A stretch of DNA of 6,982 bases from a virus (lineage: Duplodnaviria; Heunggongvirae; Uroviricota; Caudoviricetes). Below the pieces are notes generated by a model. The model did no database searches and was not told the origin of the DNA. It saw only the letters and a program-made list of their open reading frames with translations. Shown piece after piece: positions 972-6,160 of the stretch. The stretch is taken from the IMG/VR virus record IMGVR_UViG_2706794688_000015; one strand, 5' to 3'. Each line of letters opens with the position of its first letter. Positions within the stretch are counted from its first letter, which is position 1. The position numbers and the translations under genes were made by a program.

Positions 972-3152
972 TCATTCTTCCTCTGGATAGCTTGAACTTA
1001 AGAGCATATCCTGCGTGAACTGGTCATTAGCTGATTGATTGAAAGTAAAGAAAGATGGTTCATCTGGTCGAACGACAACTTGACCACCAAGTGAAACTTT
1101 CACTGGCTCCTGAATACGCTTACTCAAAGCACTAATTTCATCCCTCAGACCCTGAATATCTGCACTCGTTAATGCTGAATCTTGCTTAATGTTGTTTAAC
1201 TCTGGATGATTGAATCTTGCAATATTCATTGTGGCATTGTTAAACAATTCACCCATTGAACTAAAAATTCTACTCCATCCTTCGTTAATCATATTCGGTT
1301 TATTAGGGTCACCAGAATACACGGGATTAAAGTCACTACCCACACCTACCCCAGACGGATGCATATTAGCGTTTTTGACTACTTCCTGATTCATAAAATC
1401 CAGTGCTTTCTTCAATGCATATAAACCAAGAGTGACGCCTCTGATTTGTGGAATCATTGAAGCTAATGCTAACGCTGTTTCATAACCGTCATCAGCATAA
1501 CCAATTGCAAGAGCACTACCTACACCACCAGCTACACCTTTCAGTTTTCCACCACCTTTACCAGTAGCTACCTGACCAGCCACCTGATTAGCTCTTGTAC
1601 CTAACGTTGTGATTGCTCTTGTCAGGTTCATAACCCCTGTAGTAGCACTGAATAGCGTCTTTGCAGATAACGCTATAGCAAGACCTTTGACGAAGTTGAT
1701 AAAACCATCACCGACTTCATCAAGTAGTTTTCGTTTAGTGTCATCAAGGCTGTAATAGAACTTCTTAGTCTGTAAAATCCAGCCTTCAATGGTGTTATTG
1801 AATACGCGAATATCATCTACACCAGCTTTAAGCATGTCGATAAGTCCACCGATAGCATCACCAGCGATAGAAGAACTCATCCCCATTTCACTAAGCAGGT
1901 TACTCAGGCTGGATAAGAAGCCGTTTAGCTCATCCTGTGAACCTGAGAAGATTTTCACCATCGTATCATCCCAATTGTTTGCTAACTTACCTAAAGCTGT
2001 CTGAGTGCTCTTAGTGACTTCAGCCCAGCCACCCGCTTTATCAATCATCAAGCCCATCTGTTTAGCGACTTTAGGGAGAGTATCAGCGGAAAGTACCTTC
2101 CCGTTTTTCATGGCTGCATCAAGCTCTGTAGCAGTCATACCCAATGCTTCAGCGAATAGCTTAAATGCACCAGCCATACGGTCACCTAACTGCCCACGTA
2201 ATTCCTCAGCCTGAATCTTGCCCTTGCTCGCCATCTGCTCAAATGCTCTCAAAATGCCGTTTAGCTCATCGTTAGAAAGCCCCATTAAGCGACTCATAGC
2301 CGTTGCATTACCAAATAGCTCCTGTGTCTGTTCCTGTGACATAGAACCCTGAGCACCTGCTGCAAACTTAGCGTAGCTTGATAGCCCTTCAGAGATATTA
2401 AGACCTGTCTTGTCTGCTAAATTTCGAATAAATACCTCAGCTTCAGATGCTTTATCACCAAGTACAAACTTAGCGGCTCTCTGTGCGGAATCTCGTTTAA
2501 GACCTGCATTCATAATGGCCTTGTAAGCGTTAAGAGCACCCATCACAGAGTAAAATGCACCAGATAATTTAATCGCATTGCTTGCAAGATTATTAAATGC
2601 GTCGCTTGTATTGTTAATGCTGGCGGTCTTTGTCTGTGACCTGAGTTTATTCAACGTTTCACGAAGAGATTGATTTAATTTTGCAAGTTCAGCGTTAAAC
2701 TTTTCACTTCCAATATTACCAGCCTTACCGCTTAAGCTGTAATACTGTGCTTTAAACATTTTAGCCATCAGCGGATTAATATCACCAAGCTTAGACATAT
2801 TCACGCTATGCGCTGCTGTGATTGCTCTGTTTCCGCTAATTCGTGGTTGCCTTGATTGTTTTGGAGGATTAACAGTGTCATTAAATCTGGTGGCAAACTG
2901 AAATGCTTTTGTGCTTCTTGCTCTCTGCTCAATCTTGTCAAAGGTCTTATTAAACTTCCTTTCAAGCTGCCCTAAAGAACTTGTCAGATTGCTGTCAAGT
3001 TGCTTGGTATCGACCTTAAACGCTCTATTCAAATTGCGTTCAATTCTTTGTGCTGACTGCAAAGCTGCCTTTTCAACTCTTTGCAAGCCCTTAATAACGT
3101 TTTCACTGAAACTAAGTTCAACGATAAAACTATCAACTGTGAATTTGCTCAT
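972..3152 (-). CDS. Phage tail tape measure protein (726 aa)
   Basis: Long uninterrupted ORF with RBS AGAGGTGA 7 nt before the ATG at 3152. Protein is Ala/Gly/Leu/Lys/Gln-rich, with a Gly-rich stretch (GKGGGKLKGVAGGVGSALAIGY) and a central segment (GLSSYAKFAAGAQGSMSQEQTQELFGNATAMSRLMGLSNDELNGILRAFEQMASKGKIQAEELRGQLGDRMAGAFKLF) of the kind I recognise from tape-measure N-terminal domains. Call is by recall, not search. Confidence 0.8.
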   Translation of the reverse strand: MSKFTVDSFIVELSFSENVIKGLQRVEKAALQSAQRIERNLNRAFKVDTKQLDSNLTSSLGQLERKFNKTFDKIEQRARSTKAFQFATRFNDTVNPPKQSRQPRISGNRAITAAHSVNMSKLGDINPLMAKMFKAQYYSLSGKAGNIGSEKFNAELAKLNQSLRETLNKLRSQTKTASINNTSDAFNNLASNAIKLSGAFYSVMGALNAYKAIMNAGLKRDSAQRAAKFVLGDKASEAEVFIRNLADKTGLNISEGLSSYAKFAAGAQGSMSQEQTQELFGNATAMSRLMGLSNDELNGILRAFEQMASKGKIQAEELRGQLGDRMAGAFKLFAEALGMTATELDAAMKNGKVLSADTLPKVAKQMGLMIDKAGGWAEVTKSTQTALGKLANNWDDTMVKIFSGSQDELNGFLSSLSNLLSEMGMSSSIAGDAIGGLIDMLKAGVDDIRVFNNTIEGWILQTKKFYYSLDDTKRKLLDEVGDGFINFVKGLAIALSAKTLFSATTGVMNLTRAITTLGTRANQVAGQVATGKGGGKLKGVAGGVGSALAIGYADDGYETALALASMIPQIRGVTLGLYALKKALDFMNQEVVKNANMHPSGVGVGSDFNPVYSGDPNKPNMINEGWSRIFSSMGELFNNATMNIARFNHPELNNIKQDSALTSADIQGLRDEISALSKRIQEPVKVSLGGQVVVRPDEPSFFTFNQSANDQFTQDMLLSSSYPEEE

Positions 3153-3182
3153 TCATGTTTCACCTCTTTAAGTGTTCATATA

Positions 3183-3225
3183 CGAAAAAGGGAAAGACTA
3201 CCGATATCACTCGATAATCTCTCCC
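3183..3225 (-). terminator. Possible intrinsic terminator/attenuator between the 68-aa gene and the tape measure gene
   Basis: Minus-strand RNA: GGGAGAGA (3225-3218), 20-nt loop, UCUUUCCC (3197-3190) giving an 8-bp stem with one G-U pair, followed by UUUUU (3189-3185). Loop is long and the position inside an operon is unusual, hence low confidence. Confidence 0.3.
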
Positions 3226-3250
3226 GTAGATTTTCACCCAACCAATCTTG

Positions 3251-3457
3251 TTACCTAACCAGATAATAATTACCATCTTCACCAACAATCTGACAATCAC
3301 TTGGTAATTTATCAAGACACCACTTAGCTATTTTCCTGATTCTATTCTTTTGCTTAGAGGAGGTGAATGATTTGATTCGTTTTGGTTTGTTGGGTTGTTC
3401 TTTCAATCGTTCACTAATTGCTTTAATAAGCTCATAGCGTTCTGTTAAATCAATCAT
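3251..3457 (-). CDS. Hypothetical small basic protein (68 aa)
   Basis: ATG at 3457 preceded by AAAAGGTGGTGA; Lys/Arg-rich middle (KPKRIKSFTSSKQKNRIRKIAKW). Same frame as the upstream 236-aa gene but separated by two stops (TAA, TGA). Confidence 0.55.
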   Translation of the reverse strand: MIDLTERYELIKAISERLKEQPNKPKRIKSFTSSKQKNRIRKIAKWCLDKLPSDCQIVGEDGNYYLVR

Positions 3458-3481
3458 TCACCACCACCTTTTAATTATTAA

Positions 3482-4192
3482 TTAAATAGCCTTTGCATAT
3501 TTGCTAGAAATCTTCGTAAGCTGCTCAATATCAGCCTGCATAGCAATCTTCTTAGCATCTTCATATTCTTTCACAAGCTCTTTCATAGCCTGAAGCTCTC
3601 TTGAGAGATACAACTTAACATTATCAAGTTGCTTGTTACGTGATGCCAAGATGTTCTGTCTAGCAATTTCAGCGAGTTCTTCATCGCTCTTATTAGTCAT
3701 GTAAATAAACTGACCAGCACCTCTTGATGCCTTAACCATCTTCACAATTCGATGTCCAGCAGGAAGACTACTAATCACGGCTGCGACGTTTTCTTGAAAA
3801 GTACCAAAACCATCATTATCTTCGTATTGGTAATAGACAAATGGTTTCTGTGACAATTCATCCTGAATCTCAAATTCTGACGGCTCAATAGCTGATTGCA
3901 TCAAGGTAACTTTGCTGTAAGCGTCATCTAATCTAAGGCGCTGTTCTTTCAGCAGTTGGTAATATTTCTTTTCAAGCTCAAGTAATGCTTCACTCTTGCA
4001 AATATCAGGCATCTCTTGAGGCTCAGGAGACACAAAGATGGTTGTTTTTGGTGACATCTTTAGCGATTGCTCAAGCTCAATACGCTTGTCATGCTCTTTA
4101 CGCTGAATAGTGATAGCTGGATGTTCAGTCTGTGGCGACCAGTCACTGAAGCTATCAATCACTTTGCCATTAATGTAAATATCATTTGTCAT
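3482..4192 (-). CDS. Hypothetical protein (236 aa from the RBS-supported ATG at 4192), acidic with a predicted coiled-coil C-terminus
   Basis: ORF track gives 3482..4240 from a GTG with no spacer to any SD. The internal ATG at 4192 is preceded by AGAGGAAAAGCA and starts MTNDIYINGK. No recognisable tail-tube or chaperone signature by eye. Confidence 0.6.
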   Translation of the reverse strand: MTNDIYINGKVIDSFSDWSPQTEHPAITIQRKEHDKRIELEQSLKMSPKTTIFVSPEPQEMPDICKSEALLELEKKYYQLLKEQRLRLDDAYSKVTLMQSAIEPSEFEIQDELSQKPFVYYQYEDNDGFGTFQENVAAVISSLPAGHRIVKMVKASRGAGQFIYMTNKSDEELAEIARQNILASRNKQLDNVKLYLSRELQAMKELVKEYEDAKKIAMQADIEQLTKISSKYAKAI

Positions 4193-4240: not shown

Positions 4241-4590
4241 CTGACAGCCTATCTAAACTTAGAAGAGACTTAAAAGGCGGTTTGCCAAGTATGCTTTTTA
4301 AAAGCTGAATAGCCCTAGATAATTTCTTATAAAGGGCCATTCATAAGGTGAAGAAATTAAAACATCTAAAGGATTCAAAAAGGATTCAAACGAATGAACA
4401 AGAGTACTTTTCGAGATGACCTCTCAGACTAACCTGAAAGGTCATGTAGCGAAAAGCATTGCACCTTTCAGAATAACTATCATTGATGTAGAATGATTAA
4501 TAGTTTAATTCAGGAAGAGTTGCTCTTCCCTATTACCATCATCTCATGCTTAAGGTTATTTGTCAACAGCTTTTTAACAGATTGGTAACA
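4241..4590. other. ~350-bp noncoding, structured region between gene blocks: 11-bp tandem direct repeat AGGATTCAAAA (4370-4391), imperfect 12-bp-stem hairpin (4416-4445), 7-bp-stem hairpin GGAAGAG-ttg-CTCTTCC (4513-4529), TTGACA on the minus strand at 4566-4561
   Basis: No ORF with a credible RBS on either strand; repeats and inverted repeats read directly from the sequence. Confidence 0.5.
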
Positions 4591-4668
4591 TCAATTCTTA
4601 TTTACCGTATTACCTACCCAGCAACCAACAAATAACCCTAAAGTCATCCAGAGAATAACGAGTGTCAT
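4591..4668 (-). CDS. Putative 25-aa hydrophobic micropeptide (MTLVILWMTLGLFVGCWVGNTVNKN), translationally coupled to the upstream 101-aa gene
   Basis: ATG overlaps the TAA stop of the 101-aa ORF (TAATG at 4670-4666); GAGGTGA sits 5 nt upstream; stop TGA at 4593-4591. Below the ORF-track length cutoff. Confidence 0.3.
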   Translation of the reverse strand: MTLVILWMTLGLFVGCWVGNTVNKN

Positions 4669-4973
4669 TACATCACCTCGCTGTAAGGGTTTAATTCATT
4701 CTGATAGGTCAAGAATACATTCAGCTTCAATAATTGCTCAGGGCTTAAATCAAGTCGATTGCACTCTTCAATGATAAAGCGCTTATTGTATGGGTCTGTT
4801 ACTTCCAGCTTGTGAACATAGTCACCAAGTTTAATTTCGTTGATTATATGCTTGTCAATATACGTTGACGCTTCAAAACAATGCATGAAATAGATATTAA
4901 AGCCCGACCTGTTCAGGTCAATCAACCAATTCATGGTTTCTTGGTCAACCATAATTTGCATTGGGTAATTCAT
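4668..4973 (-). CDS. Hypothetical protein (101 aa)
   Basis: ATG at 4973 preceded by AGGAAGGA; a -10-like TAGAAT lies at 5002-4997 on the minus strand. Confidence 0.6.
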   Translation of the reverse strand: MNYPMQIMVDQETMNWLIDLNRSGFNIYFMHCFEASTYIDKHIINEIKLGDYVHKLEVTDPYNKRFIIEECNRLDLSPEQLLKLNVFLTYQNELNPYSEVM

Positions 4974-5119: not shown

Positions 5120-5335
5120 TTAGCTCAAGTCTGAGACTAATAGCCCCATCTGGTGACCGTAGTCTTTTAACCAGCTTTGCTTAACCGGAGTCTTCAGAGA
5201 ATAGTTAGGGGCTGACAAGTGAAGATAGATATCATCTTTGCCGTGGATACTTCCCCATCCTTCGTATAACTCAAGCAAGTTTTCAAAATAACGAAATGCT
5301 TTATTAGTCTGAAGTTGTACTGTGATAGTTTTCAT
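5120..5335 (-). CDS. Hypothetical small protein (71 aa, MKTITVQLQTNKAF...), third gene of a coupled cassette
   Basis: ATG at 5335 overlaps the TGA stop of the upstream gene (TGATG), with GGGGTG upstream. The ORF track's longer start at 5347 lacks an SD. Confidence 0.55.
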   Translation of the reverse strand: MKTITVQLQTNKAFRYFENLLELYEGWGSIHGKDDIYLHLSAPNYSLKTPVKQSWLKDYGHQMGLLVSDLS

Positions 5336-5556
5336 CAAGCACCCCATTCAGAAATAAGCTTAATTCCCTGCTCAAGCTGTTCAGGGTCGTTATAGTCGAG
5401 TATTACCAGTGGCTTTAATTCGTGTTTAAGCTGGTGGATTTGAGAGGGTTTTAATCGTTTGTTTGCTTTGAGGGTCACATCTTCAAATTCAGCATCTGCT
5501 AAATTCTGTCTGATTAGGTGGCGGCCAAGTGTGGAATATTGGAACCTATAACACAT
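5335..5556 (-). CDS. Hypothetical small protein (73 aa), second gene of the coupled cassette
   Basis: ATG at 5556 overlaps the TAA stop of the upstream gene (TAATG) and is preceded by GGAGG at 5-nt spacing. Confidence 0.6.
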   Translation of the reverse strand: MCYRFQYSTLGRHLIRQNLADAEFEDVTLKANKRLKPSQIHQLKHELKPLVILDYNDPEQLEQGIKLISEWGA

Positions 5557-5846
5557 TAAACCTCCAATCTATCCGCCAGTTGATGGACCTTAGCGCTTAA
5601 CACCTGAATCATTGAGCAACCTGCTACTGCGGACTGTGCTTTGAGTAGTTCCAGTTGGCCCGTTGTGATTCTGATGGCCTTAGAACCCTCTGCGACGCCC
5701 TTAACGTTATCGAAAGGGCTAAGGTTTACCGACTCTTTTAAAATCTCCCCAACAAGCGCTGTGTGCTTCATATCGGGATATTTGGCTTTGATTGCTGCCA
5801 GTCGTTCAAATGCCTCTGGCAAAAGGCGCGTAACTGTGTGAGTCAT
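5556..5846 (-). CDS. Putative DNA-binding protein (96 aa) with two ribbon-helix-helix-like segments; first gene of the coupled cassette
   Basis: ATG at 5846 preceded by AAGGAGA (the track's start at 5876 has no SD). N-terminal TVTRLLPEAFERLAAIKAKYPDMKHTALVGEILKE and C-terminal AIRITTGQLELLKAQSAVAGCSMIQVLSAKV both fit a strand-helix-helix pattern as in Arc/CopG-type repressors. Pattern-based inference only. Confidence 0.55.
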   Translation of the reverse strand: MTHTVTRLLPEAFERLAAIKAKYPDMKHTALVGEILKESVNLSPFDNVKGVAEGSKAIRITTGQLELLKAQSAVAGCSMIQVLSAKVHQLADRLEV

Positions 5847-5904
5847 TGTAAAAATCTCCTTAAATCTCTTACTCATACTACAATCTTAACATCTATTTAA
5901 CATA

Positions 5905-5933
5905 TTGTCAGTACCTCATTTACATGATACTAT
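5905..5933 (+). promoter_or_regulatory. Sigma70-like promoter: -35 TTGTCA (5905-5910), 17-bp spacer, -10 TACTAT (5928-5933), driving the plus-strand small gene and overlapping the upstream region of the divergent minus-strand cassette
   Basis: Hexamers and spacing read directly; ~50 nt upstream of the ATG at 5984. ATACTA also recurs at 5875-5880 and 5927-5932. Confidence 0.45.
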
Positions 5934-5983: not shown

Positions 5984-6160
5984 ATGCATGATTTTTTCAC
6001 AGCAATTATTGAATCTCATCGTTTTAGCTCGTTGGGCTTTGCGGTATTTATTGTGCTATTGGTGTTTTGCGTTATGAATCGAGTCATTACAAAAAAGACA
6101 AAGCTTACAATTCGACTTAAACTTCTTCGTGTTGAGATAGAGATTTCAGTAAATAAATAG
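5984..6160 (+). CDS. Small single-pass membrane protein (58 aa, MHDFFTAIIESHRFSSLGFAVFIVLLVFCVMNRVITKKTKLTIRLKLLRVEIEISVNK), the only plus-strand gene
   Basis: ATG at 5984 preceded by AAAGGAAAA; one hydrophobic segment (LGFAVFIVLLVFCVM) followed by a Lys/Arg-rich tail; own promoter; convergent with the 98-aa gene (9-bp gap). Confidence 0.5.
   Translation: MHDFFTAIIESHRFSSLGFAVFIVLLVFCVMNRVITKKTKLTIRLKLLRVEIEISVNK

Follow-up and report, generated by a model that had tools for sequence, protein, structure and literature searches.

A predicted tandem ribbon-helix-helix protein heads a cassette with exchangeable partner genes in an enterobacterial island resembling a phage satellite

What does a compact cassette of three small genes, headed by a likely DNA-binding protein, regulate in the element that carries it? 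The question is raised by a stretch of 6,982 nucleotides from IMG/VR record IMGVR_UViG_2706794688_000015 (the window), in which minus-strand genes between positions 5120 and 5846 encode proteins of 96, 73 and 71 amino acids (aa). A preliminary description, made from the letters alone, read the first as a tandem ribbon-helix-helix (RHH) protein with an autoregulated divergent promoter, and the whole as resembling a type II toxin–antitoxin (TA) module or an anti-defence operon; the RHH and autoregulation parts of that interpretation are supported, while the TA part is not. The cassette is best read as an early module for regulation and accessory functions in a phage-satellite-like island, with the RHH protein as its putative repressor, a reading that sequence comparison leaves finely balanced between belief and doubt. 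The cassette comprises the following genes.

5556..5846, minus strand: 96-aa RHH gene; modelled as a single-chain tandem RHH protein, island core gene, predicted repressor.
5335..5556, minus strand: 73-aa accessory gene; TAATG coupling to the RHH gene, optional within the island family.
5120..5335, minus strand: 71-aa accessory gene; TGATG coupling, with diverged versions in most, not all, islands.

The description of three open reading frames (ORFs) is confirmed: all lie on the minus strand and are joined by one-base stop/start overlaps (TAATG between the 96- and 73-aa genes, TGATG between the 73- and 71-aa genes) that are kept in 9 further copies, and a second version of the 73/71 pair, 47–54% identical, retains TAATG and ATGA overlaps. 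An AAGGAG motif is positioned 9 nt 5′ of the 96-aa start, and a longer, 106-aa reading of the RHH gene was discarded, not being kept in other alleles. All three genes are under purifying selection, with pairwise ratios of nonsynonymous to synonymous divergence (dN/dS) of 0.1–0.4. Records of E. coli, Shigella sonnei and S. flexneri list the exact proteins as 'hypothetical'; the 96-aa protein occurs in 4,461 indexed blocks of the assembly collection, and each exact cassette protein sequence is present on at least 1,000 contigs. Pfam, PHROGs, NCBIfam and PADLOC hold no family for any of the three. No plasmid copies of the cassette were found and the searches returned no phage homologues of its proteins; a Shewanella match (E 0.01) proved spurious, lying within a large virion protein.

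All copies of the cassette reside in bacterial chromosomes, within an element of ~11–12 kb, and the window is not a phage genome; the five IMG/VR matches are genome-derived predictions rather than virions and are uninformative as virion evidence. The element occupies four integration sites: yecE, which is interrupted and split by a 10.9-kb insert, wrbA/ymdF, yciI/tonB, and the mdoH–lpxL region. Its gene order is constant, running from variable cargo (often a small serine recombinase) through a Dam-like methylase, a replication initiator, a 98-aa gene and the RHH gene to small ORFs, ~101-aa, 236-aa and ~70-aa genes, a tape-measure gene, a gene for a distal-tail (Dit)-like baseplate protein and a convergent large serine recombinase. 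The last, of 506–553 aa, sits at one end of the island and supplies the integrase of a discrete insertion, and a 317–330-aa protein matches PHROG replication-initiation families (E 2e-10), providing the island with an initiator of its own. Among 16 islands compared, the RHH gene is present in every one, and apart from the integrase no other predicted DNA-binding protein is common to all; Dam is missing in 4, the initiator is replaced in 5 and the small recombinase is missing in 7. The island region was matched in 127 of 5,426 complete E. coli genomes.

The structural genes of the island are limited to the tape-measure and Dit-like genes, with no capsid, terminase or other tail genes. The Dit-like protein shares 68% and the tape-measure 33% aa identity with Felixounavirus garuso, in which the counterparts garuso_118 and garuso_119 are adjacent to each other, and patches of the two genes reach 87–95% nucleotide identity. 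The island looks like a phage satellite because an integrase and a replication gene are present while capsid, terminase and other tail genes are absent; the incomplete virion set is accompanied by genes and sites shared with a would-be helper phage. An identity as a Felix O1-type satellite or interference element is held with moderate confidence.

Structurally, the lead protein quite probably adopts a tandem RHH fold. An AlphaFold2 model computed from 28 homologues contains two β-α-α units of RHH topology, at low confidence, with strand 3–7 and helices 10–22 and 28–36 in the first unit and strand 57–61 and helices 62–75 and 79–93 in the second, so that residues 3–93 of 96 are covered and only the linker remains besides. 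In this model the strands pair into the two-stranded ribbon that characterizes the RHH superfamily, and the two units would form a pseudo-dimer within a single chain, in the manner of TraY, VirC2, AvtR and DndE. The predicted strand residues are near-invariant even in alleles of 37–44% identity (H-T-x-[TL]-R and I-R-I-T), and the assignment originally proposed is kept as the best one, subject to the weakness of the model. The linker joining the units is predicted to be disordered, yet it is conserved, residues L42, F45, D46, V51 and G54 unusually so. The best structural match is TraY; a sequence search of the PDB with the 96-aa protein gave no match, and the sole family match is a sub-threshold hit to DndE (E 0.05) obtained from a distant RHH allele. 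Homologue searches covered 5.8 billion and 1.84 billion proteins, the latter being cluster representatives. Word-indexed searches recovered only close RHH relatives of at least 61% identity, an exhaustive profile search added two more diverged alleles, both in the same island type, and every RHH homologue found occupied the same slot of the same island. The lead protein represents an orphan family of rare fused RHH architecture, found exclusively in enterobacterial islands by the exhaustive profile search of the 1.84 billion cluster representatives.

The candidate targets of this protein lie at two promoters, one preceding the cassette and one preceding the structural genes, as follows.

5883..5911, minus strand: promoter P1 of the RHH operon; -35 CTGACA at 5911-5906, -10 TAAGAT at 5888-5883.
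5887..5903, minus strand: predicted operator O1; ATGTTA-aatag-ATGTTA in the P1 spacer and -10.
5905..5933, plus strand: divergent promoter; -35 TTGTCA, -10 TACTAT, back to back with P1.
4575..4591, minus strand: predicted operator O2; ATGTTA-ccaat-CTGTTA, and, 11 bp on, CTGTTGACA, which is the P2 -35.
4538..4566, minus strand: promoter P2; -35 TTGACA at 4566-4561, -10 GATGAT at 4538-4543, located 5′ of the 236-aa, 68-aa, tape-measure and Dit genes.
972..4192, minus strand: P2-driven genes; 236-aa gene at 4192-3482, 68-aa gene at 3457-3251, tape-measure gene at 3152-972.

P1 and the divergent promoter are both sigma70-like, with overlapping -35 boxes, and this back-to-back arrangement together with O1 is consistent with the autoregulated divergent promoter of the preliminary description. 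The P1 -35 is a perfect TTGACA in all other alleles with this promoter region, except that of locus L006 (CTGGCA; L numbers denote the loci compared), and in most alleles a third phased repeat at O1, ATGTTGA, constitutes the -35 itself. At both promoters the third repeat in the 11-bp register, TGTTGACA, coincides with the -35. No non-coding block of the island is more strongly conserved than P2, and the O2 repeats are placed 9 nt upstream of its -35. The motif ATGTTA-N5-nTGTTA was defined on P1 and then searched on both strands of ~12 kb per island in 16 islands, allowing one mismatch; in 14 of them it occurs exactly at P1 and P2 and nowhere else, amounting to 3–4 phased pairs against 0.1 expected per 12 kb (0.06 chance hits per window). 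The half-sites are invariant while the spacers vary (5 nt at O1). In islands whose RHH protein is 37% identical, the RHH gene lacks its own promoter and the motif has relocated to the TTGACA promoter of the upstream gene. That the TGTTA repeats serve the island as att, ori or pac site was rejected, phased pairs being confined to the two promoters.

RHH proteins read one 5-bp core per pseudo-dimer, with neighbouring dimers one helical turn apart. By this rule each 96-aa molecule would form one pseudo-dimeric β-ribbon reading a single TGTTA half-site, and two or three molecules would sit side by side on repeats 11 bp apart. The 96-aa protein may well be the regulator that acts on the predicted sites at P1 and P2, a proposition that the evidence places near the midpoint of the scale. 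Binding over the -35 and -10 of P1 would produce autorepression, binding to the repeats overlapping the P2 -35 would bring the tape-measure operon under the same control, and occupation of both would hold the island silent; the accessory 73- and 71-aa proteins, translationally coupled and exchangeable, would then be made when P1 fires. We infer repression at P1 and P2 because near-consensus promoters need a repressor more than an activator; at P2 the sign is unproven.

TGTTA repeats of this kind are also packed into the genome ends of the phage group that shares the tail genes. In garuso, 13 of the 18 genome-wide motif hits are located within 750 bp of a 1.65-kb non-coding region, the shuffle mean for the whole 86-kb genome being 4.45, and the region holds 33 TGTTA copies, many at 11-bp spacing (L036 4500-5700, corresponding to garuso 49,400-50,600). 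Its counterpart in phage vB_EcoM-Ro111lw is the 613-bp direct terminal repeat (L037 1-613), and the record of that phage begins GCCCCCT-TAACA-N6-TAACA-N6-TAACA. The Felix O1 terminal region has 34 TGTTA copies against 6.2 expected, an about five-fold enrichment that makes TGTTA its commonest 5-mer; of 27 spacings, 11 measure 11 bp. The more distant phage SUSP1 carries 30 copies. The terminal region is conserved in 284 phage records, which, among the matches listed, are Felix O1-like (Ounavirinae). The phage loci with TGTTA-packed terminal regions (30–34 copies against about 6 expected) include L039 and L040, and the repeats are conserved across Ounavirinae genera, with packaging, end protection and replication as candidate roles. 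The Felix O1 genome paper makes no mention of the TGTTA array of the terminal repeats (PMC3185647).

Island and phage terminal region share no extended similarity; the likeness of operator and phage repeat is taken as a lead because the tail genes are also shared with this phage group. A functional link of the RHH protein and its operators to the terminal repeats, drawn from motif comparison, is tentative and less likely than not. Incoming or replicating helper DNA could, speculatively, titrate the RHH protein or be its target: the ~30 copies per terminal region would act as an operator sponge that titrates the protein and switches the island on, induction being by helper DNA and not by a helper protein, or alternatively the protein would coat the helper genome ends and block their processing or packaging. 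On this reading the island would be an undescribed family of satellites of virulent Felix O1-like (Ounavirinae) phages in Escherichia, Shigella, Citrobacter and Kluyvera, in which the RHH protein reads the TGTTA repeat of the helper ends, for titration-induction or end-coating; as a whole it is doubtful.

The repeats could instead be occupied by another protein, for example one that binds the terminal repeats of a helper phage and activates the island promoters, leaving the RHH protein a TraY-like architectural role in replication, excision or packaging. Such a division of labour would suit the best structural match, TraY being a DNA-processing accessory protein, the abundance of repeats in the phage ends, for which the phage presumably has its own binder, and the position of the P2 repeats upstream of the -35, as for an activator. 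It fits poorly with the near-consensus -35 and -10 elements of P1 and P2, which need repression more than activation, and with the window-type P1, where the repeats lie between -35 and -10. Phased repeats are absent from the island ends and from the vicinity of the rep gene, the contents of the slot behind the RHH gene do not track recombinase type or integration site, the garuso repeats are not at promoters, and no relaxase or transfer genes are found in any island. No phage-encoded RHH protein was recognised near the garuso terminal repeat or terminase; garuso_8 is an HTH_3 protein. On balance this explanation is unlikely, and the RHH protein itself is preferred as the binder at P1 and P2.

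The slot directly behind the RHH gene is the exchangeable part of the cassette. It holds the window-type 73- and 71-aa genes, the 47–54% identical pair, a diverged 71-aa type alone, or a gene for a 128–141-aa protein. The full cassette is present in only 20 of the 127 E. coli genomes matching the region, and in the commonest match class homology ends exactly at the RHH stop codon; in that class the 128–141-aa protein replaces the 73/71 pair in 3 of 3 sampled islands. The 73/71 genes are absent or replaced in most E. coli islands. Synonymous divergence (dS) within the 73/71 pair is 0–0.18 between islands whose RHH genes differ with dS ~1, and therefore the pair forms a separately exchanged module. 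A 73-aa version at 51–54% identity occurs in L014 and L018. The 73-aa protein has weak similarity to the N-terminal part of the 128–141-aa protein (hhalign E 1e-3, probability 22%), which may be related to it; the 141-aa replacement protein shows no similarity to the Dam C-terminus, with which a shared helix-turn-helix was sought. The 71-aa protein is modelled by AlphaFold2 as β-α-β-β-α with a pLDDT (predicted local distance difference test) of 83, and the model has no fold match. A role of the two proteins as recombination directionality factors was set aside, slot content being independent of recombinase type and integration site.

Homing-endonuclease-like HNH_3 genes were also observed at differing slot positions (L012 10285-10557, L013 10285-10557, L015 3478-3765 and, in truncated form, L014 10333-10557), in some islands before and in others after the diverged 71-aa-type gene; their placement is consistent with gene-boundary recombination between islands.

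This exchange bears directly on the TA interpretation, in which the RHH protein would serve both as antitoxin and as autorepressor, with the 71-aa protein, the 73-aa protein or both as the toxin stabilising the island. The layout is that of a TA module, with an RHH gene first, small genes following through overlapping stop/start codons and an autoregulation-type predicted operator in P1; in L011, L015 and L023 a 71-aa-type gene comes directly after the RHH gene, and the conserved linker between the units could be a binding surface. What it lacks are the parts that would make it one: the RHH units leave no toxin-binding tail, the partners have neither toxin fold nor toxin family, they are dispensable and swapped while the RHH gene is kept, the cassette shows no independent mobility and always occupies the same island slot, and the predicted operator is shared with a structural operon. 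A TA module is accordingly highly improbable, and this part of the preliminary description is not supported.

More akin to the preferred reading is an anti-defence or take-over operon, which differs from it only in the role of the two small proteins: the RHH protein would act as autorepressor in the manner of Aca proteins, while its two partners would inhibit host defence or other host functions to the benefit of island or helper. In its favour are the small size of the genes, their rapid exchange, their restriction to a mobile element and their place behind a strong operator-bearing promoter; both proteins are orphan families without homologues elsewhere. They bear no similarity to known inhibitors, and no match to anti-defence families was obtained in general family libraries, none dedicated to anti-defence having been searched. 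In known acr-aca operons the regulator comes last, whereas here it comes first, and the predicted regulon includes the tape-measure operon, making the RHH protein more than a local autoregulator. An anti-defence role of the pair is possible, with no positive evidence for it, and the operon reading as a whole has a low probability. Under the satellite reading, neither small protein is likely to be a toxin; an effect on the helper phage or on the regulation of the island is the likeliest role for the pair.

Several observations weigh against regarding the cassette as the regulatory module of a satellite. The RHH model is of low confidence (pLDDT 58, predicted template-modelling score 0.44), the internal sequence repeat between the RHH halves is not significant, and neither the whole 96-aa protein nor its halves match an RHH family in Pfam or any family in Pfam, NCBIfam or PHROG. 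Two islands (L011 and L023) lack a clear O1. The sign of regulation is not settled, because the repeats of P2, like those of P1 in distant islands, are located upstream of the -35, where activators can bind too; another host or phage protein could bind the repeats. The TGTTA core is short, and its identity between island and phage could be a coincidence, the chance of which, for one 5–6-mer, we estimate at roughly 1 in 500 to 1 in 2000. The function proposed for the 73- and 71-aa proteins is a guess. Finally, the Shigella copy in the window is decaying, with a broken Dit gene, IS1 and IS21 insertions, a truncated recombinase and both promoters off consensus; the off-consensus P1 -35 and P2 -10 suggest reduced expression. 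These same lesions, with down-mutations in P1 and P2, would also be expected of a functionless relic in this genome. A relic would sit uneasily with three intact ORFs, with the 4,461 assembly blocks and the 1,000 or more contigs bearing each exact sequence, and with the purifying selection on the family as a whole; it is accordingly quite improbable.

Beyond the cassette and its promoters, the neighbouring minor features are as follows.

4668..4973, minus strand: 101-aa gene; probably in the same operon, with no predicted terminator between the cassette and the gene.
4591..4668, minus strand: 25-aa hydrophobic ORF; TAATG overlap with the 101-aa stop, ending inside operator O2.
5984..6160, plus strand: divergent 58-aa ORF; encodes one hydrophobic helix and is annotated in several genomes.

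The cassette operon probably continues into the 101-aa gene and the 25-aa ORF, since no terminator is predicted before P2. The 25-aa ORF (MTLVILWMTLGLFVGCWVGNTVNKN, 4591-4668, minus strand) keeps its position in all aligned islands. The 58-aa ORF, served by the divergent promoter and encoding a transmembrane-like helix, is retained in 45% identical versions and corresponds to WP_000506009.1 in E. coli. The P2 -10 reads CATAAT in most other islands and TAATAT, GAAGAT or TATAAT in a few. The P2 leader (~340 nt, extending to the 236-aa gene) contains two adjacent hairpins at 4416-4469 on the minus strand that are shared among islands, 9 of their 19 pairs showing compensatory changes; they have no Rfam match and may represent either a structured leader of the tape-measure operon or a small RNA of that operon. 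In some islands a terminator-like hairpin follows further downstream in this leader. No known RNA families were found in the window. The 236-aa protein (3482-4192; for example L008 18815-19525) is called 'transposase' by the Prokaryotic Genome Annotation Pipeline (PGAP) in several genomes, a name without Pfam, PHROG or NCBIfam support, and its alleles are only 26–62% identical between islands. The broken Dit-like gene of the window spans 71-836, of which 356-791 is 87–95% identical to Felixounavirus DNA, and intact E. coli islands encode a Dit-like protein of 254–261 aa. The island end opposite the integrase forms a second variable slot (L017 12912-13577, L018 13101-13934, L002 6298-6867) that contains a small serine recombinase/invertase or unrelated proteins of 221–277 aa.

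Neither RHH repressors nor phage satellites are new as kinds. No published description was found of this compact island, whose virion genes are limited to those for the tape-measure and distal-tail proteins of a virulent phage group, and no paper in the literature searched pairs a ribbon-helix-helix protein with a phage satellite. At its predicted operator the island carries the same repeat unit as the genome ends of that phage group, and the combined observations yield a testable hypothesis for how an island could sense or attack a virulent helper phage. Felix O1-type phages serve in the typing and biocontrol of Salmonella and E. coli, and the island may be a determinant of resistance to them or of interference with them.

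Comparison with known systems places the cassette among several partial relatives. TraY of the F plasmid (PDB 9f0x chain E) is likewise a single-chain tandem RHH protein, but the 96-aa protein is only 11% identical to it and has no Pfam TraY match; the island contains no relaxase, oriT or conjugation genes, and its predicted sites lie at two promoters. As with Arc/Mnt of the phage P22 immI region and the omega/CopG-type repressors, an RHH repressor would here head the operon it represses. Those repressors bind cooperatively to short repeats one helical turn apart in a divergent promoter region, and the predicted sites at P1 have the same layout. They differ in being homodimers of single RHH units, whereas a fused pseudo-dimer is predicted here; there is no sequence similarity, and in the island a second, distant promoter carries the same repeats. 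Relative to type II RHH antitoxins (CopG, ParD and MazE-like), the 96-aa protein has two RHH units and no toxin-binding tail, and its partners are non-toxin by all tests made and dispensable across the family.

At the level of the element, Barth, Dunham and Seed described E. coli islands with a tape-measure gene, a baseplate gene and a replication initiator but no other tail genes, proposed to be satellites of virulent coliphages (PMC10055350, PMC10448857). Those islands, of at least 13.5 kb, encode capsid and decoration proteins and mostly tyrosine integrases beside tRNA genes, whereas the present island has no capsid gene and a large serine recombinase; five genomes carrying it are absent from their supplementary tables. 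SaPI Stl and CapR of the phage-inducible chromosomal island-like element (PLE) of Vibrio cholerae are satellite-encoded DNA-binding proteins that silence the element or target helper DNA, as proposed for the 96-aa protein; neither is homologous to it or of the RHH type. The likeness to SaPI and PLE extends to an integrase and a replication initiator of their own and an incomplete virion gene set. PLE encodes a large serine recombinase and parasitizes a virulent myovirus (PMC6002521, PMC10055350), and it is, by analogy, the closest functional analogue of the island.
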